This document shows positions 3,279 through 24,576 of a DNA stretch of 32,000 nucleotides, one piece after another. The position numbers were made by a program, and so were the translations under genes. Below the pieces are notes generated by a model. That model was not told where the DNA came from. It ran no database searches and was given only the letters and a program-made list of their open reading frames with translations. Within the stretch, counting starts at the first letter, position 1; the number at the start of each line of letters is the position of its first letter. The stretch covers positions 67,447-99,446 of the forward strand of contig NZ_JMCC02000029.1 in the NCBI RefSeq assembly GCF_000737335.2. The letters run 5' to 3'. This DNA is from Enhygromyxa salina (lineage in GTDB: Bacteria; Myxococcota_A; Polyangia; Nannocystales; Nannocystaceae).

Positions 3279-4085
3279 GTGCGGCTGCAGCATGGCTGGC
3301 AACCCGGAGTTGGCATGCGGCCCCAAGACATGGCCCAGCCGGGGCCGAAGATCGTGTGGTCGAGCCGCAACCTGGCGCGGGCGCGGGAGGCCGGGTACCG
3401 CGGGGCCGTGGCGATCGGGGCGCCGTGGCTGTACATGCCGCGCGCGCCCGACCCGGGGCCGGATCATCCGCGCAGCGTGTTGATCGTCCCGTTTCACGGC
3501 TGGGAAAAGCAGGCCCTCGCCGGGACCATGGACGACTACGCGCAGGCGCTGGTCCGGCTCGAGGCCGCGGGGTTTGGGCCGATCACCGTGTGCCTGTACT
3601 GGTTCGAGTACGAGCAGCCGGCGCTGCGCGAGGTGTTCGAGCGCCACGGGTTTGCGACCACGACGATGGGCGCTCGCGGTGACAACCCGGCGTTCTTGCA
3701 GCGGCAGCGGGAGCTGATCCAACGCCACGCGTACGTCAGCTCCAACCGCGTGAGCACGGCCGCGTTCTATGCCCTCGAGGCCGGGCGACCGTTCTTCTTG
3801 TACGGGCCGCTGGCCGGGTTGAGCGCGACCGAAGACGCGAGCGGCGAGCAATTTGATCAGTGGCAGCGCGATGAGTTTCCAAGCCTGGCCGCGGTCGCTG
3901 CCGACGCGGTCTGCAACGTCGAGCTTGGCGCCTACGAGCTGGGCGCGGAGCACAAGCGCACGCCCGAGCAGCTGCGCGAGCTGTTGCTGCTTGGCGCGGA
4001 TCAGCGCGGCGCGCGGCTCACCGTTGGCCTGCGTCGTCGGGCGCATGATCTTGGCGTGGCGCTGGGTTTGGGTCGCCGGCCATGA
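3279..4085 (+). CDS. Hypothetical protein translationally coupled to the flippase; 5' end uncertain
   Basis: Track ORF is 2838..4085, but its 5' part lies antisense to pseB. Internal start candidates are TTG 3060, GTG 3279 and ATG 3315. Third-position GC is already high from about 3170, so the real start may lie upstream of 3279. The stop overlaps the next ATG (ATGA at 4082-4085). I recognise no domain. Confidence 0.5.
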   Translation: MRLQHGWQPGVGMRPQDMAQPGPKIVWSSRNLARAREAGYRGAVAIGAPWLYMPRAPDPGPDHPRSVLIVPFHGWEKQALAGTMDDYAQALVRLEAAGFGPITVCLYWFEYEQPALREVFERHGFATTTMGARGDNPAFLQRQRELIQRHAYVSSNRVSTAAFYALEAGRPFFLYGPLAGLSATEDASGEQFDQWQRDEFPSLAAVAADAVCNVELGAYELGAEHKRTPEQLRELLLLGADQRGARLTVGLRRRAHDLGVALGLGRRP

Positions 4086-5647
4086 ACGACACCAACGACG
4101 TAAACGAGGCCGATCCAGCTCTGCCGAAGCTCGGCAGCTCGCGGGCTCGGATCGCACGGCTGTTCAAGAACTCGGGCATCTACGCGCTCGGCGAGCTCGG
4201 TCTGTCGCTGCTGTCGGTGGTGATGATGCCGATCCTGACCATGTTCTTGCTGCCGGCAGAGTATGGCGTGTTCTCGCTGGCGATGATGGCCTTCACCGGC
4301 TTCACGCACCTGTGCAACCCCGCCCTGCACGGATCGGTCACCCGCTTCTACTTCGATCACGAGCACGACGAGGCCGCCAAGGCCCGGTTTCAAGGCACGA
4401 TCCTGTCGTTCTTGTTGGCGTGGTCGTTTGGCATGTGCGTGATCGCGACGGTCACCGGCCCCGCGCTGTTTCCGTTGTTGTTTGTTGATCTTCCGTTTTG
4501 GCCCTACGGCCTGATGACCGTGTGGATGGTGTTTCTCGGCGTGCTGGGGGTCGTGCCCAAGGCGGTCTGGGTCGCGTCCGAGAACTCCAAGCCGTTCGTT
4601 GGCGTCAGCCTGCTGGGATCGGCGGTCAACGTGCTCGGCACGCTGAGCCTGGTCGGGCTCGCGGGGATCGGGGTGATGGGGATGTTCGTTGGCCGCGCCG
4701 CGAGCTTGCTCGTGCTCGCGGTCCCGTTCACCGTCTTCACGGTTCGTCACCTGAAGCTGGCGTGGAGCTGGGATGACCTGCGCTCGGCCCTGCGCTTCTC
4801 GCTGCCGTTGGTGCCGCACTTGATCGCGCACTGGGTGCTGGGCATGTCGGATCGCTTCGTCATCGTGCACTACTACGCGGGGCTCGACGTCAAGGCGACC
4901 GCGGCTGCGGTCGCGGAGCTTGGGATCACGCCCAACGCCGAAGGCGAGCTGAACCTCGGCACGGGCGCGGTCGGGATCTATACCGCCGCGTACGACTTCA
5001 TGAGCGCCGTCAACATGATCGCGGTGTCCATGAACAACGCCTGGGTGCCGCAGTTCACCCGCGCCCACGGGCGGCCTGAACAGCGCGCATTCGTGGCCCG
5101 CTCGATCACCTATTTCATGCTCGCGGTCGGCTCGATGAGCGCCGCGATGGTCGTGCTCTCGCCCACGATCGTGCGTACCGGGCTCATCAACGCCAAGTTC
5201 GCGTTCGCGGCCGAGCTCGCGCCGATCCTCGCGCTTGGCGGGTTGTTTCAGGGGCTCTACTACGTCTACGTGGCGGTGCTGTTCTACTACAAGCAAAACC
5301 GCCTGATACCCGTGATCACGGTCGTCAGCGGGGTGACCAACGTGGCGCTCAACCTGCTGTGGCTGCCGAAGTACGGGCTCGTCGGCGCCGCGTGGGCAAC
5401 CGTCGTGGGCTACACGATCTTGGTCGTTGGCGTGCGCTGGGCGGCGCGGCGCTGCGAGATGCCGGACTTCGAAGTCGGCCGGCTCGCGCGGATCGCCGGG
5501 GTGCTGTTGGCGGTCGTGGCGGCCGGGATGCTCGTCGATGGGCGGCTTGGGGTCTGGCTGGAGCTGCTGGCCAAGCTTGGGGTGCTGGGCGTGGGGGCGC
5601 TGGCGCTGTGGGGTATGGGCGTGTTGGCTCGGCGTGAGCCGCAGTGA
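4082..5647 (+). CDS. Wzx-like oligosaccharide/polysaccharide flippase (MOP superfamily, Polysacc_synt family)
   Basis: 521 aa and hydrophobic throughout, with about 12-14 predicted helices. The N-terminus FKNSGIYALGELGLSLLSVVMMPILTMFLLPAEYGVFSL is typical of RfbX/Wzx proteins. It sits beside a nucleotide-sugar dehydratase gene. Confidence 0.75.
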   Translation: MNDTNDVNEADPALPKLGSSRARIARLFKNSGIYALGELGLSLLSVVMMPILTMFLLPAEYGVFSLAMMAFTGFTHLCNPALHGSVTRFYFDHEHDEAAKARFQGTILSFLLAWSFGMCVIATVTGPALFPLLFVDLPFWPYGLMTVWMVFLGVLGVVPKAVWVASENSKPFVGVSLLGSAVNVLGTLSLVGLAGIGVMGMFVGRAASLLVLAVPFTVFTVRHLKLAWSWDDLRSALRFSLPLVPHLIAHWVLGMSDRFVIVHYYAGLDVKATAAAVAELGITPNAEGELNLGTGAVGIYTAAYDFMSAVNMIAVSMNNAWVPQFTRAHGRPEQRAFVARSITYFMLAVGSMSAAMVVLSPTIVRTGLINAKFAFAAELAPILALGGLFQGLYYVYVAVLFYYKQNRLIPVITVVSGVTNVALNLLWLPKYGLVGAAWATVVGYTILVVGVRWAARRCEMPDFEVGRLARIAGVLLAVVAAGMLVDGRLGVWLELLAKLGVLGVGALALWGMGVLARREPQ

Positions 5648-5658
5648 CGCGCCTACGA

Positions 5659-5977
5659 CCGCACACCCTGAGTTCGTTCCGGGTTAGGTGCGGAGCTGAG
5701 GCCCAAGGGCGAGGAGCGGCGACGACGCTGTACCGGGCGTACTGCTAGGGCACCGATCAGTTTGGAGTCGCGGCGTCAGGTGCGTCTGGGGCCGTTCCTG
5801 CCTAGGAGGGAGGCCGAAGCTGTATCCGGCATACTGCGAGCGCCGACCGACAACGGCAGGGGCGGTCCCAGATGTGCCTGGCGTCGTGAATTCAAACTGA
5901 TTGGCGCTCTAGGAGCTGCGACACTGCCATTGGGCCTCAGTGCCGTGCATAACCCGGATCGAACTCAGGGTGTGCGG
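5659..5977. repeat. Imperfect palindrome of ~320 bp with 28-nt terminal inverted repeats (MITE-like element or large RNA hairpin)
   Basis: 5659-5686 is CCGCACACCCTGAGTTCGTTCCGGGTTA. The reverse complement of 5950-5977 is CCGCACACCCTGAGTTCGATCCGGGTTA, a 27/28 match. Arm complementarity continues inward: CTGAGGCCCAAGGGC pairs with GCCATTGGGCCTCAG, CTAGGGCACCGATCAGTTTGGAG pairs with ATTCAAACTGATTGGCGCTCTAG at 18/23, and 5790-5804 pairs with 5857-5871 at 12/15. The left arm carries about 21 extra nt. The central loop is about 5805-5856. Confidence 0.8.
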
Positions 5978-5979
5978 CA

Positions 5980-6654
5980 CTAGGCCACGGCAAAGCGCTC
6001 GAGCATCTCTAGCCACGCCCCGAAGTGGGCACACTTCACGCGAATTCGATCCAGCGAGATCTGCTGCGCTGCCAACGGCCCGTGGAGCGTCTTTTGATAC
6101 CTGGGGAACAAGCCCTCGATTCGCTTGGATGGCGCCGTGGCCGGACCCTCGTTGATGTCTTCAGGAGTGGCGAAGCTGGCCTGCAAGGCGGCAAAGCGCT
6201 CAGCGCTGTCGCGGTTCGCGTTGACGACGCGGGGCAAGGTGGTGCTGTCAGAGAACAACCACGCCTCAAACTCGTGCAATGCCAGAAACGCAGAGAAGCG
6301 TTGATCGCTGAAGTGCTGCGTGAGGTTGTCTTCGACGTGTTTCACCCGTTGTGCCGGTGAGCCGTTTGGCGGACGCGTCGAGATGCCGGGGCAGTCTCGC
6401 GGGAGCCCGTAGTAGTCGATTAGTGTCGTCACGAGTGCATCACCAGCGCCTTGAAGAATCCGCTTGACGTCGTTCTCGAGCTTGCCAAACGAAGTGACGC
6501 CTCCCTTGAAATTGGGTCCGGCCTTCACTTTCTTCGTCACCAGCAGGGTCGCGGAGAGATACAGGTTCTTGGGCCAAAAATGGGGCGCGAGCACCTCTTT
6601 GACGAAGCGCTCTTCGGTTTGGCCTTCGACCAACAAGATTGCCCGCTTGGTCAC
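5980..6654 (-). CDS. DUF4276-like protein with TOPRIM-like N-terminal motif; putative nuclease partner of the upstream ATPase
   Basis: 224 aa with a GTG start at 6654. The N-terminus (M)TKRAILLVEGQTEERFVKEVL carries the hydrophobic-VEGxTE acidic motif seen in TOPRIM/OLD-family domains, and by my recollection at the start of DUF4276 proteins. Start and stop overlap as GTGA with the ATPase gene. G+C is visibly lower than in the flanks. Confidence 0.65.
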   Translation of the reverse strand: MTKRAILLVEGQTEERFVKEVLAPHFWPKNLYLSATLLVTKKVKAGPNFKGGVTSFGKLENDVKRILQGAGDALVTTLIDYYGLPRDCPGISTRPPNGSPAQRVKHVEDNLTQHFSDQRFSAFLALHEFEAWLFSDSTTLPRVVNANRDSAERFAALQASFATPEDINEGPATAPSKRIEGLFPRYQKTLHGPLAAQQISLDRIRVKCAHFGAWLEMLERFAVA

Positions 6655-7742
6655 GGACGCGCCCCAATGATGTTCTTTTCCCAGAGCTCCCCGAGCGAGT
6701 ACTCGTCAGACCACGCGGACATGTCCTCGGAGGAGAGCTGTTTGAACACGCTCTGACCATCGTCGCGCTCGACCGTCCACACGTCCTCAGGAGTAAATTG
6801 GTTGATGAGAGTGACGGACTGCGTGGCTGCAATTATTTGAATCTGCGACGCCGCAGCGGACATCATGCTCGCGAGGTCCGTGATCGCGGCTGGGTGCAGG
6901 CCGAGCTCGGGTTCGTCGAGCAGGATCAAGCCAGGCGGGGCGGGCTGGAGCAGGAGGGTAGCGAGGCAGATGAAGCGCAGGCTACCGTCGGACAGCGCAG
7001 AGGCCTTGAAGAAGGCGTCACGGCCCCGCTCCTTCCATTCGAGCTGGATTCGGGACGGGTTGAGGCGCGAGGGGGCGAGGTCGAAGCGATCGAAGAACGG
7101 CGCGACCTGTCGGACCGCACCTTCGATCGTGGCGAAGTTGTCGGGGTGCCTCTGCGCCAGAAAATACAGGTAGGCTGGGAGGTTGTCAGCGTTCGCGCGG
7201 AGGAATCGATTGTCATCGATCTCGCACAGCTGCTTCATTGGCGCTGTCGCCCCGGTGTCGTGAAAGTGATAGATCCGGTAGCCCTCGAGGTCCTGAAGCG
7301 CCTGACGAGCACACAGGTGTGAGTGGGCCCGAAGCTGGGACTCGTCCGAATGCAGGCCGATGTCGAGTTCGTAGGGTTCACGATACTTTTCGCGTTCGTG
7401 ATAGAACGCCTGCTCGCGCGCGATGATCAGTCGGTTGTCTTGCGTTGGCACCAAGTCCACGGAGTAGCCGTTGGCGCGATTTCCTTCAGCGAAGTCTAGA
7501 TTGATGTGCAGCGTGTCGGTGTGCTTGCGTCCAAAGTGCAGCAGCGCGTCGGGTCCACCTTTGGTCGCGGTATAGCCAGCCAAATTCTGCGTGACGATCT
7601 CGCGCAGGAGCCGGAAGACCCCGACAAAGTTCGACTTGCCGACGCCGTTGGCCCCGATCAGGATGTTCAACGGTGCGAGCGCCAGGGTCTGATCGCGGAT
7701 CGACTTGAAGCCCTGGATCGTCAATTTCTCGAGTTTGCGCAC
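6651..7742 (-). CDS. ABC/SMC-type AAA ATPase (AAA_15/AAA_21-like)
   Basis: 363 aa with a GTG start at 7742. (M)RKLEKLTIQGFKSIRDQTLALAPLNILIGANGVGKSN contains Walker A. The signature-like motif is LSDGSLRFICLATLLLQ. Walker B / D-loop is LILLDEPELGLHPAAI. IIAATQS lies at the H-loop position. Confidence 0.85.
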   Translation of the reverse strand: MRKLEKLTIQGFKSIRDQTLALAPLNILIGANGVGKSNFVGVFRLLREIVTQNLAGYTATKGGPDALLHFGRKHTDTLHINLDFAEGNRANGYSVDLVPTQDNRLIIAREQAFYHEREKYREPYELDIGLHSDESQLRAHSHLCARQALQDLEGYRIYHFHDTGATAPMKQLCEIDDNRFLRANADNLPAYLYFLAQRHPDNFATIEGAVRQVAPFFDRFDLAPSRLNPSRIQLEWKERGRDAFFKASALSDGSLRFICLATLLLQPAPPGLILLDEPELGLHPAAITDLASMMSAAASQIQIIAATQSVTLINQFTPEDVWTVERDDGQSVFKQLSSEDMSAWSDEYSLGELWEKNIIGARP

Positions 7743-7786
7743 GCGTACCTTGCCCGTGGCGGGTCGCCGCGCAGGCTACCAGATCC

Positions 7787-9829
<2,043 letters not shown>

Positions 9830-21338: not shown

Positions 21339-21397
21339 AGCCGGCTGGAGCTTGGCCATGCGCACGGGCCTGAGCCGGAGCCTGACTCGGGTCTGGT

Positions 21398-21418
21398 CCG
21401 CGCGGTTGATCCGCGCGG
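21398..21418. terminator. GC hairpin CCGCGCGG-ttgat-CCGCGCGG between the thioredoxin gene and the next ATG
   Basis: Perfect 8-bp stem with a 5-nt loop. It lies 60 nt after the stop at 21338 and 8 nt before ATG 21426. There is no U-tract. It could terminate transcription or occlude the ribosome-binding region of the downstream gene. Confidence 0.3.
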
Positions 21419-21425
21419 CGCGACC

Positions 21426-22577
21426 ATGAGCGAGCGCGCGACACGAGAGGCGGCGCAGCTCAGCGTCGAGCTCGAGGCCAAGCTGCTCGCGCGCTTGGTC
21501 CAAGAGTGGCGCGGCATCAACTACGCCTACTTCAAGAGCGCGCTGAGGATCCCCGTGATCCGCCTGTCCGACGGGCCCGAGCTGGCCCACTGGAGCCTTG
21601 GCCTGCGCAGCCTCGAGATCTCGCGGGTCTTGGTGCTGGAGTACGACTGGGGCGAGGTGCTCGAGACCCTCAAGCGCGAGGTCGTCGTGCAGTTCATCGA
21701 CGAGCGCCTGAGCGTCGACGAGCGCCGGCATGGGCCAACCTATCGGCGGATCTGCGCGCGGCTGGGCATCGGCACCCGCCCAACCGGCAAGCCTCGTCCA
21801 GACCAAGGCATCGACCCGCGGGATCCCTCCAGTCGAGCGGTCAGCAGGATCCACAAGCTGCTCGCGCTCGCCCAGAGCCCCAACCGCCACGAAGCCGAGG
21901 CCGCGGCCGCGACGGCCCGGCGGCTCATGTTCAAGTTCAACATGCCCGCGCCGTCCGAGCGTCCGGGATCACAGCCTGAACAGGCCGACCGCCCGCGCTA
22001 TGGCTTTCGCCGGCTCGGGCGCCCTGTGGGACCGCTGTGGGAGCACGACCGGCGCCTCGCCAAGATCCTCAACGAGTACTTCTTCGTCGAGAGCGCGTGG
22101 CTGCCGGTCTATCTGCCCCGCGAGGGCAAGCGCGGCAGCGTGCTCGAGGTCTGCGGGCTCGAGGCCAATCTGCTGATCGCCGAGCACGTCCACGCGTTCG
22201 CACGCCAGACCGCGCAGCGCCTGTGGGCCGAGTACGCGCGCTCGACCGCGGGCGCGGGCCCCGGTGATCGCCTGGCGTTCTTGGCCGGCGTCATGAAGGG
22301 CTTCGAGACCAAGCTGGCGGCGCAAAACCAACAGCTGCAAGTAGAAGGATTGGTCTGGGTGCCGGCGCCGGATCTCGGCGTGTATTTTCGGCGACGCAAC
22401 CCAACACTGCAATACGTGCAGCCCGGGGATGCTCGGCACAATCACGCGTTCGAGCAAGGCAGCAAGGCAGGGTTGGCGATTGTGCTATCGCAGCCGGTTG
22501 GGTCTGGGTCTGGGTCTGGGTCGGGCGCGCGGCCCAAAGCCCTGAACGCCGCGCGCTCCCCAGCGGACAAACGATGA
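21426..22577 (+). CDS. DUF2786-like protein with an N-terminal degenerate SprT-like domain
   Basis: 383 aa. The central SRIHKLLALAQSPNRHEAEAAAATARRLMFKFNM matches the DUF2786 pattern as I remember it. The N-terminus (INYAYFKSALRIPVIRLSD...HWS...LEISRVLV...VLETLKREVVVQF) follows the SprT-like layout, but REVVV sits where HExxH is expected. The tail is a GSGSGSGSG tract. Confidence 0.55.
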   Translation: MSERATREAAQLSVELEAKLLARLVQEWRGINYAYFKSALRIPVIRLSDGPELAHWSLGLRSLEISRVLVLEYDWGEVLETLKREVVVQFIDERLSVDERRHGPTYRRICARLGIGTRPTGKPRPDQGIDPRDPSSRAVSRIHKLLALAQSPNRHEAEAAAATARRLMFKFNMPAPSERPGSQPEQADRPRYGFRRLGRPVGPLWEHDRRLAKILNEYFFVESAWLPVYLPREGKRGSVLEVCGLEANLLIAEHVHAFARQTAQRLWAEYARSTAGAGPGDRLAFLAGVMKGFETKLAAQNQQLQVEGLVWVPAPDLGVYFRRRNPTLQYVQPGDARHNHAFEQGSKAGLAIVLSQPVGSGSGSGSGARPKALNAARSPADKR

Positions 22578-22578
22578 A

Positions 22579-22612
22579 CATGGCCGAAGGGCCACTGCAC
22601 CCCTCGGCCATG
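22579..22612. terminator. Bidirectional stem-loop between convergent genes
   Basis: cATGGCCGAAGGG-ccactgca-CCCCTCGGCCATg: a 13-position stem with 12 pairs and one mismatch. It starts 2 nt after the stop at 22577 and ends 19 nt before the stop at 22632. No U-tract, which I understand is common in high-GC genomes. Confidence 0.5.
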
Positions 22613-22631
22613 TCGCGGCGAAGATCTGCGC

Positions 22632-22967
22632 TCAGCTCTTCTGGAAGGTCACGAGCCAGGACTTGCTCTTGTTCTGCCCCAACTTCTCCGAGACACGAAA
22701 CTGGTCCTTTCCGTTGACCTCGATCAGAAACTCGATCTGGCCGCCGCCGGAGCAATTGATGGCGGTCATCAACATGTCGTGGCTGCTCGATCGAAACGCC
22801 GGCGTCAGGTCGATCTCGTCCTGGAACTTCAGATCGTAGTCTGTCATTCGCTCGTAGATCTTGCGTCGAACGGTGTTGCTCTCGGCCAGGTGACCCAGCA
22901 AGATGTTGTCGGCCCGCGTCACGGTCATGGTCACGCGATCCCCTTGTTTGTACTTCACTGTTGGCAT
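22632..22967 (-). CDS. Small orphan protein (111 aa) in a low-GC pocket
   Basis: Track ORF is 22632..23066. The internal ATG 22967 is preceded by AGGAGA at a 7-nt spacing (caacAGGAGAcaatcatcATG). The product MPTVKYKQGDRVTMTVTRADN...FLIEVNGKDQFRVSEKLGQNKSKSWLVTFQKS is rich in Lys, Asn and Gln and uses AT-ending codons, unlike its neighbours. I recognise no family. Confidence 0.6.
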   Translation of the reverse strand: MPTVKYKQGDRVTMTVTRADNILLGHLAESNTVRRKIYERMTDYDLKFQDEIDLTPAFRSSSHDMLMTAINCSGGGQIEFLIEVNGKDQFRVSEKLGQNKSKSWLVTFQKS

Positions 22968-23160
22968 GATGATTGTCTCCTGTTGATCGCTGATTACCGA
23001 ATATTGGCGATACTTCGAACAACGACCATGGCTGGTATACTGTTTATCTGGTTGAAGGCTAGGCAATCATCGCGAAGAACATATGAAAAGTATTCGCCAT
23101 GTTTGTCCGTACGACCACGCTTTCGTTCGCGGCGGCGCGCTCGCCGAGCGCAGAGTCCAA

Positions 23161-24576
23161 TTAATCAAATGCGGCCGCGACCGCCTGCACGACGGTCTCG
23201 ACCTCGATCAGCTCGAGCCCGGCGCGGCTGGGCTTGGTGGGCTTGTTGGCTTTGCGGCCGCGCCCGCAGATGATCGCCCGCGTGAACCCGAGCCGGGCGG
23301 CCTCGGCCAGCCGCTCGTCCATTCGAGGTACGCGGCGCAGCTCGCCGGTCAGCCCAACCTCACCAATGATCACCGTGCCGGCTTGGATCGGCTTGCGCAG
23401 GTGCGAGCTGGCGACCGCGAGCAGCACCGCGAGATCGGCCGCCGGCTCGTTCAAGCGCAGGCCCCCGGCCACGTTCACGAACACGTCCTGGTCAACCACG
23501 AACAGCTCTGCGTGGCGATCGAGCACGGCCAGCAACATCGCGAGTCGGTTGGGGTCCGCGCCCACGCAGGTGCGCCGCGGATAGCCGCCGGGGCTGGGCC
23601 CGAGCAGCGCCTGGACCTCGAGCAGCAGCGGCCGCGAGCCCTCGAGCGAGGCCGTGACCGCCGAGCCGATCGCCTGCTCGGGGTGGTCGGCCAAGAACGC
23701 CTCGCTGGGGTTTTGTATCTCGCGCAGACCCAGGCCGGTCATCTCGAACACGCCGAGCTCGGCGGTGCTGCCAAACCGGTTCTTGCTGGCCCGCAGCATC
23801 CGCGTGGCCCGCTCTTCGTCGCCCTCGAAGCTGAGCACCGCGTCGACCATGTGCTCGAGCAAGCGCGGGCCGGCGAGCTGACCGTCCTTGGTCACGTGGC
23901 CCACGATCACCACTGGCACGTTGCTGGTCTTGGCCCAGCTCAGCAGGTGCCCGGTGACGCTGCGGATCTGGCTGATGTTGCCGGGCAGACCGTCTTGCGC
24001 GTCGCTGTAGACCGTCTGGATCGAGTCGACGACCAGCACGTCGGGGCGCTGCGTGGCGGCGTGATCCAAGATCGACTCGATGCGGGTCTCGGCGATCAGC
24101 AACAAGCGCTCGTCGCCCACGCGAAACTCACCGCCACGCAGGCGGGCAGCTCGCGCAGCGACCTGGGCGACCGACTCTTCGCCGCTCGCGTACAGGACCG
24201 TGCGGCCGCGCTTGCCCTCGCCGACCAGCGCCGCGCAAGCCTGCAGCAACAGCGTGGACTTGCCGATCCCCGGGGCCCCGCCAAGCAGGACGAGGCTGCC
24301 GGGCACCAAGCCGCCGCCGAGCACCCGATCGAATTCGCTGATCCCCGTGTGCAGCCGTAGCTCGCTGGCGGCGTTAGCCTGGGCATCGGTGACCGGGGTG
24401 GGCTTCGACTTGGCGCCCGGGGCTGCGAGCACGACCCGCTCGCCGGCCGCGGGCCGCTCGGTCTGCTCTTGGATCGTGTTCCACTCGCGGCAACCGGGGC
24501 ACTGGCCGAACCACCCGTTGGTCGTGGCACCGCATGCGTTGCACGCCCACCGGGTCTTGGACTTGGTCTTGGCCAT
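23161..24576 (-). CDS. radA: DNA repair protein RadA/Sms
   Basis: Track ORF extends to 24681. ATG 24576 gives MAKTKSKTRWACNACGATTNGWFGQCPGCREWNT, the C4 zinc finger. Also present: Walker A GGAPGIGKSTLLLQ, the KNRFG motif, and a Lon-protease-like C-terminal domain (VFVNVAGGLRLNEPAADLAV...GEVGLTGELR). Confidence 0.95.
   Translation of the reverse strand: MAKTKSKTRWACNACGATTNGWFGQCPGCREWNTIQEQTERPAAGERVVLAAPGAKSKPTPVTDAQANAASELRLHTGISEFDRVLGGGLVPGSLVLLGGAPGIGKSTLLLQACAALVGEGKRGRTVLYASGEESVAQVAARAARLRGGEFRVGDERLLLIAETRIESILDHAATQRPDVLVVDSIQTVYSDAQDGLPGNISQIRSVTGHLLSWAKTSNVPVVIVGHVTKDGQLAGPRLLEHMVDAVLSFEGDEERATRMLRASKNRFGSTAELGVFEMTGLGLREIQNPSEAFLADHPEQAIGSAVTASLEGSRPLLLEVQALLGPSPGGYPRRTCVGADPNRLAMLLAVLDRHAELFVVDQDVFVNVAGGLRLNEPAADLAVLLAVASSHLRKPIQAGTVIIGEVGLTGELRRVPRMDERLAEAARLGFTRAIICGRGRKANKPTKPSRAGLELIEVETVVQAVAAAFD

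Follow-up and report, generated by a model that had tools for sequence, protein, structure and literature searches.

A HEC-01-Type Operon in Enhygromyxa salina

The window analyzed in this study is a 32,000-nt stretch of Enhygromyxa salina DNA (NCBI RefSeq assembly GCF_000737335.2, contig NZ_JMCC02000029.1, positions 67,447 to 99,446 of the forward strand). On its minus strand, positions 5980-7742 hold an intact, self-contained two-gene operon that an earlier prediction, made from the sequence alone, had singled out as a candidate defense module. According to the open reading frame (ORF) listing, the upstream gene (6651-7742, GTG start) encodes a 363-aa ABC ATPase of the HEC-01A type, and the downstream gene (5980-6654, GTG start) encodes a 224-aa DUF4276 protein of the HEC-01B type, which is predicted to be a TOPRIM-type nuclease. 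The two genes are linked on the minus strand by a 4-nt stop/start overlap, GTGA, at 6651-6654. Direct reading of the junction (...CGT CCG TGA in one frame and GTG ACC AAG in the other) bore out the overlap claimed in the original prediction, and this arrangement suggests that the two genes are translationally coupled.

Both products matched the paired PADLOC models of the candidate defense system HEC-01 (Hma-embedded candidate 01). The ATPase aligned over residues 2-363 with positions 4-362 of the 363-position HEC-01A model PDLC04175 (4.7e-142), and the DUF4276 protein aligned over residues 3-221 with positions 13-226 of the 230-position HEC-01B model PDLC04188 (3.5e-77). These scores far exceeded those of AriA, Old, GajA, AbiLi, mad3 and other ABC-ATPase defense models in PADLOC. 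Consistent with HEC-01 membership, the two genes are adjacent and co-oriented, with their 4-nt overlap on the same strand. Judged from these profile matches, the pair is an intact copy of HEC-01, which was described from Hma systems as an embedded pair of ABC ATPase and TOPRIM-like protein and was predicted to retain a conserved OLD-type metal site (Payne et al., 2024, 10.1101/2024.01.29.577857). Given that both models were matched end to end, the pairing of this ATPase with DUF4276 had already been catalogued, and the PADLOC call of HEC-01A plus HEC-01B agrees with the proposed status of the cassette as a candidate defense module. In Pfam, the ATPase matched AAA_21 (1.5e-29, residues 25-314) and, in its N-terminal part, AAA_15 (1.4e-11), while its partner covered positions 1-192 of the 192-position DUF4276 model PF14103 (1e-52; 179.6 bits, compared to a cut-off of 30.2); the accession given in the original prediction was correct. 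More than 3,800 homologues of the ATPase and more than 7,900 of the partner were found. With full-length family matches and homologues in the thousands, these two ORFs are not chance ORFs.

The ATPase

The Walker A, signature and Walker B motifs expected of an AAA_15/21-type ATPase were all present on the minus strand. The Walker A motif or P-loop, G30-A-N-G-V-G-K-S-N38, is encoded at 7629-7655, and its G30, N32, G33, G35, K36, S37 and N38 are invariant in the ATPase alignment (A2). The ABC signature, S251-D-G-S-L-R-F257, is encoded at 6972-6992, with S251, D252, G253, L255, R256 and F257 invariant, and the Walker B motif, L275-D-E-P-E279, at 6906-6920; the latter is followed by the D-loop L-G-L-H-P, is invariant in A2 and had its codons confirmed in the sequence. 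The AlphaFold2 (AF2) model of the ATPase had a predicted local distance difference test score (pLDDT) of 85.7. With Foldseek, it matched the SMC head 4i99 best (2.9e-14), followed by PtuA, Rad50, RecN and OLD 6p74, and there were 698 PDB matches at E <= 1e-3, headed by SMC, Rad50, RecN, PtuA and OLD heads. The best PDB match by sequence was the Thermus OLD protein 6p74 (3.3e-5). As modeled, the ATPase is a compact ABC head of the SMC/Rad50/RecN/PtuA/OLD type without a coiled coil.

The ATPase lacks the canonical H-loop histidine. At this position it has T307-Q308-S309 (6816-6824, minus strand), which is invariant in A2, aligns with T-H-S of Thermus OLD 6p74 and places Gln where canonical ABC ATPases carry His. 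Of 115 ATPases from the close subfamily, 113 carry Gln, while His is retained in the divergent HEC-01 subfamilies. The H-loop histidine of ABC ATPases generally assists hydrolysis; its replacement by Gln suggests that this ATPase may be a slow, switch-like enzyme. The Gln does not mark every DUF4276-paired ATPase, because divergent His-type ATPases also have DUF4276 partners.

The C-terminal tail of the ATPase (residues 343-363, ...YSLGELWEKNIIGARP; 6654-6716, minus strand) is near-invariant in A2 and has pLDDT values below 50 in the monomer model. A tail that is conserved yet modeled with low confidence in the monomer is a pattern common for partner-binding peptides. The tail was kept wherever a DUF4276 partner of the close type was present, and in two loci the tail and the partner were both lost. 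It could conceivably bind the partner as a DUF4276-specific docking peptide; this idea is weakened by the overlap of the two genes, since a single deletion could remove the tail and the partner together.

The DUF4276 Partner

The partner begins with MTKRAILLVEGQTEERF. In its AF2 model (pLDDT 87.7; predicted template modeling score 0.84), helices alternate with strands at residues 3-9, 31-37 and 74-80; a fourth strand at about 120-125 is only weakly defined, and the model also has a conserved loop of low confidence at 41-51 and a C-terminal helical bundle. A sequence search for solved relatives of the partner found none. In Foldseek searches, the best match was 6nk8_A, the C-terminal region of Burkholderia pseudomallei OLD (E 2.7e-4; probability 1.00; template modeling (TM) scores 0.46/0.51), followed by 6njv (8.2e-4). 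These two were the sole PDB matches at E <= 1e-3, and both come from class 2 OLD proteins, of which they are the C-terminal TOPRIM nuclease regions. The next match was 8ux9_A of the PARIS complex (probability 0.82; E 0.031), a chain of 306 residues whose size fits AriB. Thus, the partner is predicted to adopt a divergent OLD-type TOPRIM nuclease fold on the basis of fold similarity of moderate strength, in line with the original suggestions of a TOPRIM-like protein and of an ATPase with a separate TOPRIM effector reminiscent of PARIS or a split OLD nuclease.

Conservation was assessed with 75 diverse DUF4276 members that were 33-56% identical to the window protein (alignment A3). E10, G11, E14, G51, G52, Y82, E130, E165 and K188 were invariant, and D80, H127 and E128 were conserved in at least 90%. 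Three motifs stand out, all on the minus strand. V9-E10-G-Q-T-E14-E15 (6610-6630), which contains the invariant E10, G11 and E14, directly follows strand beta1 (3-9) and corresponds to the TOPRIM beta1-Glu motif. D80-Y81-Y82 (6409-6417), with D80 conserved at the level given above and Y82 invariant, lies at the end of beta3 (74-80), where TOPRIM proteins have DxD. H127-E128-F-E130 (6265-6276) is an acidic motif after beta4 with candidate metal ligands, and its alignment pattern suggests a catalytic role. The partner therefore retains the TOPRIM Glu after beta1 as E10 but lacks the canonical DxD, since the second Asp at +2 is missing; E128, E130 and E165 may substitute for it. Judged from the alignments, the His-to-Gln change in the H-loop and the D-Y-Y variant of TOPRIM together define the subfamily to which the window pair belongs.

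Pairing, Gene Order and Spread

The partner-based survey confirmed 220 genome loci, of which the best 80 were kept. These 80 partners were 38-62% identical to that of the window and came from Verrucomicrobiota, Acidobacteriota, Planctomycetota, Myxococcota, Proteobacteria, Patescibacteria and other phyla. An ATPase homologue was found directly upstream and on the same strand in 79 of them; in the single exception, only 407 nt of upstream sequence preceded the contig end. The junctions of these 79 loci included 4-nt overlaps in 49 (ATGA in 31, GTGA in 13 and TTGA in 5) and 1-nt overlaps in 10, so that the genes overlapped in 59/79, and nearly all of the remaining junctions were gaps of no more than 7 nt. 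Conversely, the ATPase-based survey found a DUF4276-family gene directly downstream in 41 of 47 loci. Scans with Pfam and PADLOC also revealed that distant ATPases (24-36% identity) precede divergent DUF4276/HEC-01B genes. The co-occurrence anticipated in the original prediction is therefore near-obligate in both directions.

The six exceptions in the ATPase-based survey were a truncated ATPase (L119), three partial ATPases (L139, L143 and L150), a locus in which the gene downstream of the ATPase matched PDC-M31B (L148) and a locus from a Candidatus Schekmanbacteria metagenome-assembled genome (L134). In L134 (954-5795), the ATPase has an intact tail, no DUF4276 gene follows it and a PIN-domain ORF lies 250 nt downstream; the ATPase gene overlaps the end of a 1012-aa ORF that resembles a DNA methyltransferase by eye.

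Clustering of the flanking ORFs of the 80 loci identified no recurrent third gene, the largest cluster being a housekeeping one from 6 loci, and a restriction-type helicase was nearby in only 4 of the 80. A conserved third gene was rejected on this basis; the stand-alone state is the rule in the close subfamily. The two proteins are also encoded separately: an exhaustive profile search (E <= 1e-3) yielded 4,411 partner clusters at 50% identity, and the top 150 of the 4,411 representatives were all stand-alone proteins of 154-285 aa, with no ATPase fusions. Homologues were found on 13 plasmids. On an 11-kb mobilizable plasmid of Acinetobacter, the pair adjoins vapBC, and on an Aeromonas plasmid the gene order is WYL, SNF2 helicase, ATPase, DUF4276 and DNA methyltransferase, which is an embedded, Hma/MADS-like architecture. 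It should be noted that among the loci L005, L010, L016 and L019 (Verrucomicrobiota) and L096-L102 the cassette lies between the genes for the N- and C-terminal subunits of fumarase in several Verrucomicrobiota, and that in others a gene for a second AAA_15/AAA_21 protein, of 607 aa, directly follows the pair.

Evolution of the Locus

In the window, the cassette is flanked by a gene for a polysaccharide flippase (Polysacc_synt; 4082-5647, plus strand), which is its left neighbor and convergent with it, and by a gene for an RCC1/DUF4215 repeat protein (7787-9829, minus strand) 44 nt upstream. These neighbors are unrelated to the cassette, as had been stated before. The flanking proteins are 89-97% identical to their counterparts in E. 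salina SWB007, where the order is syntenic: flippase gene, a spacer of about 76 nt (about 1,080 nt in the window), ATPase gene and RCC1-type gene. The SWB007 ATPase (L081 11532-12614, syntenic with 5624-7742 of the window) shares 77% amino acid identity with that of the window and is annotated as an intact 360-aa protein. Its DUF4276 gene, in contrast, has been deleted right after the GTGACC start, and from about residue 347 on, small indels have scrambled the tail of the ATPase. This locus looks like a decaying copy of the system. Between the SWB007 and window ATPases, the ratio of nonsynonymous to synonymous substitution rates (dN/dS) was 0.17, which indicates purifying selection on the remainder of the SWB007 protein; relaxed selection on the orphan ATPase was not seen overall. 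The dS of 0.83 was higher than the 0.27-0.48 of the flanking genes, which may simply reflect weaker codon bias.

In E. salina SWB005, both cassette genes are absent. The closest ATPase (80% identical) is encoded on a metagenome contig (L153), which is syntenic on both sides and has an intact partner gene. In this contig (2070-4449, syntenic with 5204-8044 of the window), 2.4 kb with a gene for a 565-aa TPR protein and a 177-aa ORF separates the partner gene from the flippase gene, and the interval between partner and flippase is thus a variable spot beside a conserved cassette. In Parabacteroides segnis (L119 4001-5017), a 338-aa ATPase homologue stops just before the conserved tail and no DUF4276 gene follows it. 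The effector has therefore been lost naturally and independently at least twice, in SWB007 and in P. segnis, and the ATPase was left scrambled or truncated. In Enhygromyxa-like lineages, the cassette is inherited at one position and is decaying in some of them. The spread across phyla, the carriage on plasmids, the low guanine-plus-cytosine (GC) content described below and the loss of the nuclease in the sister species together amount to the behavior of an accessory gene.

The claim that the cassette is AT-richer than its flanks also held: its GC content is 60.5%, compared to 67.5% for the remaining window and to 67.3 and 70.7% for the left and right 3-kb flanks, respectively. It is the 1763-nt stretch with the lowest GC content in the 32 kb, none of 2671 non-overlapping windows being equally low, and the GC content at third codon positions (GC3) of its two genes is 0.73 and 0.78, compared to 0.84-0.93 for neighboring genes. 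A cassette AT-richer than its flanks was likewise found in 60 of 64 loci, with a median difference of -5.4 points, and the cassette still tracked the GC content of the host (r = 0.84). Given that low GC is family-wide and that the locus is syntenic in relatives, the low GC content of the window copy is no sign of recent arrival. No non-coding ends were conserved between unrelated hosts. A recent horizontal insertion with recognizable ends was rejected because of the synteny in SWB007 and L153, the lack of shared non-coding ends and the family-wide low GC content.

Relation to Named Systems

With HEC-01, the window pair shares full-length matches to both models, gene order, adjacency and agreeing folds (ABC ATPase plus TOPRIM). 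It differs in that it stands alone among housekeeping genes, outside any Hma system, and in that its subfamily has the H-loop Gln where divergent HEC-01 subfamilies have His. A homologous pair is found in the MADS system of Pseudomonas aeruginosa, where the ABC-type ATPase Mad3 is followed by the DUF4276-family protein Mad4 and both are needed for full defense: deletion of mad3 or mad4 weakens defense, and loss of the methylase gene mad5 is possible only when mad2 or mad3 is missing too (10.1101/2023.03.30.534895). DUF4276 has been described together with RloB as a new TOPRIM family homologous to Mad4 in the Menshen paper (PMC12065111), and the PARIS paper (PMC11464382) also includes it with the families that accompany AAA_15/21 ATPases. 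Although the PADLOC model mad3 matched the window ATPase at 1.5e-27, the NCBIfam scores of 87.5 bits for MADS3 (cut-off 420) and 13.9 bits for MADS4 (cut-off 160) indicate a distant relation, and the remaining MADS genes, such as those for the methylase and helicase, are absent from the window, which places the pair outside MADS.

Like the window cassette, PARIS consists of two genes, for an ATPase (AriA) and a separate TOPRIM effector (AriB), and the window partner weakly matched the 8ux9 chain. In PARIS, a hexamer of AriA holds three subunits of AriB, the phage protein Ocr binds to AriA in a way that depends on ATP, and the freed AriB dimerizes and cuts tRNA-Lys (PMC11464382). AriB, however, is a DUF4435 protein, while the DUF4276 partner in the window had no DUF4435 hit at E <= 1; the 363-aa window ATPase is much smaller than AriA, reported to be 53-55 kDa; and the PADLOC model AriA matched the window ATPase at 1.5e-27, compared to 4.7e-142 for HEC-01A. 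PARIS is also often borne by phages or satellites, whereas the DUF4276 family of the window had no phage match. AbiL of Lactococcus is a validated abortive-infection pair of an ABC ATPase (AbiLi) and a TOPRIM-like protein (PMC13064643). It has the same architecture as the window pair, and the PADLOC model AbiLi matched the window ATPase at 1.3e-24, but its partner AbiLii is of the RloB type rather than DUF4276, and sequence similarity is limited to the ATPase.

An ABC ATPase and an OLD-type TOPRIM also occur together in the OLD proteins (class 1 P2 Old and class 2 proteins of B. pseudomallei and Xanthomonas campestris) and in GajA. The structures closest to the partner (6nk8 and 6njv) and the best PDB sequence match of the ATPase (6p74) belong to this group, and the window ATPase also matched the PADLOC models Old and GajA. 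Unlike the two ORFs of the window, their domains are fused in one polypeptide, and they have DxD where the window partner has D-Y-Y. Among the window ORFs there was no methylase or helicase partner, and no UvrD-like (GajB-like) helicase adjoins the cassette.

Proposed Function

We consider the cassette to be a stand-alone, ATPase-gated nuclease module for immunity against phages or other mobile DNA, working by the logic of PARIS, AbiL and OLD, and assign this reading a probability of about 0.6. In its favor are the full-length matches to both HEC-01 models, the near-obligate pairing, the two folds with their conserved residues, the accessory-gene behavior and published work: the HEC-01 prediction, one protective HEC-01 representative, the need for mad3 and mad4 in MADS, and the PARIS and AbiL pairs. 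The ATPase and the DUF4276 protein would form a complex. Engaged with ATP as a dimer or a larger oligomer, the ATPase would be the sensor and the keeper of the nuclease. A cue from the invader would then allow the TOPRIM effector to cleave its target (host tRNA, other RNA or DNA), and infection would stop, probably with the loss of the infected cell. PARIS is the best and clearest mechanistic template for the pair, and the trigger, substrate and abortive outcome proposed here are modeled on such systems.

Several observations weigh against this proposal. The assignment of the partner to TOPRIM is a fold similarity of moderate strength (TM 0.46-0.51; E 2.7e-4), and the Pfam model PF20469 (OLD-like_TOPRIM) was matched below threshold (14.7 bits, compared to 23.2; E 0.046) at residues 4-23 only; such a sub-threshold match was seen in just 3 of 20 DUF4276 family members. 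Since DxD reads D-Y-Y, catalysis by the partner may be atypical or absent. A HEC-01 representative tested in Escherichia coli gave no protection from any phage used (10.1101/2024.01.29.577857). With another representative, E. coli B was protected against one or more of the phages T7, T5 and T4, and no mechanism was given; this sole positive test comes from a cold-seep preprint, concerns a single representative described only as AAA_21-bearing and was made without mutants (10.1101/2024.09.26.614923). The partner had no tblastn match in 50,697 phage records and no PHROG family. In the window, a PADLOC scan of 10 other ORFs (the unannotated ones and several neighbors) found no match to a defense model, and no tRNA, mobile-element gene or Rfam family was found; the lack of PADLOC-matching neighbors, tRNA and mobile genes leaves the pair without guilt by association. 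A defense-island or embedded context was rejected for the window on the same grounds. Among viral structure models, there was no significant match to the partner, the nearest being a phage RloB-like model (probability 0.75), and a phage origin of the cassette was rejected given the results for phage records, PHROG and viral structure models.

An OLD- or Gabija-like mode of action, in which nuclease and ATPase remain together and the nucleotide-gated complex cuts invading or damaged DNA instead of releasing a tRNA-cutting effector, is the main rival, though an unlikely one. It would fit the structural matches of the partner, in which class 2 OLD nuclease regions rank ahead of the PARIS chain, and the similarity of the ATPase to OLD 6p74 in both sequence and fold. 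Some homologues lie between an SNF2 helicase and a DNA methyltransferase, and the deletion of mad5 required the loss of mad2 or mad3 (10.1101/2023.03.30.534895), which suggests that the killing arm acts on DNA, is sensitive to methylation and requires the Mad3 ATPase. OLD and GajA are, however, single polypeptides, while the proteins discussed here are split and no fusions occurred in the top 150 of the 4,411 representatives, and neither a methylase nor a helicase accompanies the pair in the window. We regard as improbable a selfish addiction module of the toxin-antitoxin kind, whose ATPase would neutralize a toxic nuclease and which would persist by killing upon its loss, without real benefit against phages. 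The tightly coupled pair with the ATPase gene proximal to the promoter has the style of an antidote-toxin operon, homologues are carried beside vapBC on a small plasmid and occur in scattered housekeeping contexts without defense neighbors, and PARIS itself has been described as type II toxin-antitoxin-like (PMC13064643). Such a module sits poorly with SWB007 and P. segnis, which lost the putative toxin and kept most of the ATPase, but loss of the toxin first is expected for any toxic effector, so the order of loss does not discriminate between the readings. Addiction is opposed further by the retention of the cassette at one chromosomal locus across Enhygromyxa-like lineages, to which the logic of plasmid stabilization does not apply, and by the HEC-01 representative that protected against phage (10.1101/2024.09.26.614923).

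Marginally more improbable is that the pair is an orphaned accessory arm of a methylation-based system of the Hma/MADS type and is useless alone in its source genome. HEC-01 was discovered inside Hma systems and a stand-alone copy was tested without defense (10.1101/2024.01.29.577857), Mad3 and Mad4 operate within an eight-gene MADS system, and the Aeromonas plasmid homologue is placed between an SNF2 helicase and a methylase. Against this reading are the stand-alone rule of the subfamily, with no third gene in 80 loci and a restriction-type helicase near 4, the intactness of both genes, which are under purifying selection (ATPase dN/dS 0.17 compared to SWB007) with all motifs retained, and the MADS3 and MADS4 scores far below the NCBIfam cut-offs. 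A shade less credible still, when its parts are taken jointly, is that the subfamily defined by the H-loop Gln, D-Y-Y and the conserved tail works in neither a PARIS- nor an OLD-like way, for example as an ATP clamp with poor hydrolysis whose tail tethers an atypical TOPRIM enzyme, and that the 350-nt hairpin described below might be an RNA partner or regulator. RecR carries a TOPRIM domain, and a housekeeping pair for DNA repair or chromosome maintenance, in which an SMC-head ATPase and a TOPRIM protein would work like RecF and RecR, could account for the SMC, Rad50 and RecN heads at the top of the structural matches, for weak NCBIfam hits of the ATPase to RecF and the SMC N-terminal domain and for the housekeeping setting. 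It is nonetheless highly improbable: the distribution is patchy, with the cassette absent in SWB005 and the nuclease lost in SWB007, identity reaches about 60% across phyla with plasmid carriage and persistently atypical GC content, and the strongest matches are to defense-candidate models rather than repair families.

The pair itself is of little import: it adds one more intact copy to a candidate system that is already catalogued and gives no sign of a new system category. The original view of the pairing as uncharacterized thus stood only in part: the pairing is named HEC-01, catalogued and tested twice with mixed outcome, while a mechanism is still lacking. With 4,411 partner clusters at 50% identity, HEC-01 is very abundant yet mechanistically unsolved, with contradictory phage tests. 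To the family this study adds near-obligate two-way pairing, a conserved stop/start overlap, the stand-alone rule, the H-loop Gln and D-Y-Y as marks of the subfamily and at least two natural losses of the effector. Related lineages have kept the myxobacterial copy at one locus, which also provides a native setting for its function that may be more informative than E. coli.

A Hairpin Beside the Cassette and Other Features of the Window

The flippase and DUF4276 genes converge, and all of the intergenic sequence that separates them (5641-5991) is one hairpin of about 350 nt, bordered by TA on each side. As RNA, it has folding energies of -248.9 kcal/mol for the plus strand (z = -15.1) and -193.4 kcal/mol for the minus strand (z = -9.8), and the favored strand is antisense to the cassette at the 3' end of the nuclease gene. 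The plus-strand stem has 128 pairs, including 17 G·U, and one A·C mismatch. Given that neutral decay of a palindrome predicts similar counts of G·U and A·C, either the structure is preserved on the flippase-sense strand or mutation is biased there. The hairpin is absent from the same site in SWB007, SWB005 and L153, and it was dismissed as a HEC-01 family feature because other HEC-01 loci are without it. A miniature inverted-repeat transposable element is not supported, since the terminal 18-mer had only chance-level hits in genomes and a 24-mer had none in metagenomes, so that these searches yielded no further copies, nor is a known RNA, as there was no Rfam match.

The product of 7787-9829 consists of cysteine-rich DUF4215 repeats followed by an RCC1-like propeller, and all tandem and direct repeats reported around this gene are its internal DNA repeats of 96/192 and 168 nt. 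Farther neighbors encode an ECF sigma factor, an epimerase, a hydrolase, an acyltransferase, a mechanosensitive channel, a Ser/Thr kinase, a WGR-domain DNA ligase, RadA and a vault-like protein. A second low-GC patch at 21339-23273 (0.59 at 22501-23000) contains two overlapping, unannotated ORFs on opposite strands; neither matched PADLOC, and the two adjoin a gene for a DUF2786/DUF7168 protein. At 25112-31395, the gene for the vault-type protein, which is 835 aa long and has the shoulder and repeat domains of the major vault protein, is followed by an ORF of 1239 aa whose GC3 is coding-like and which matched neither Pfam nor PADLOC.

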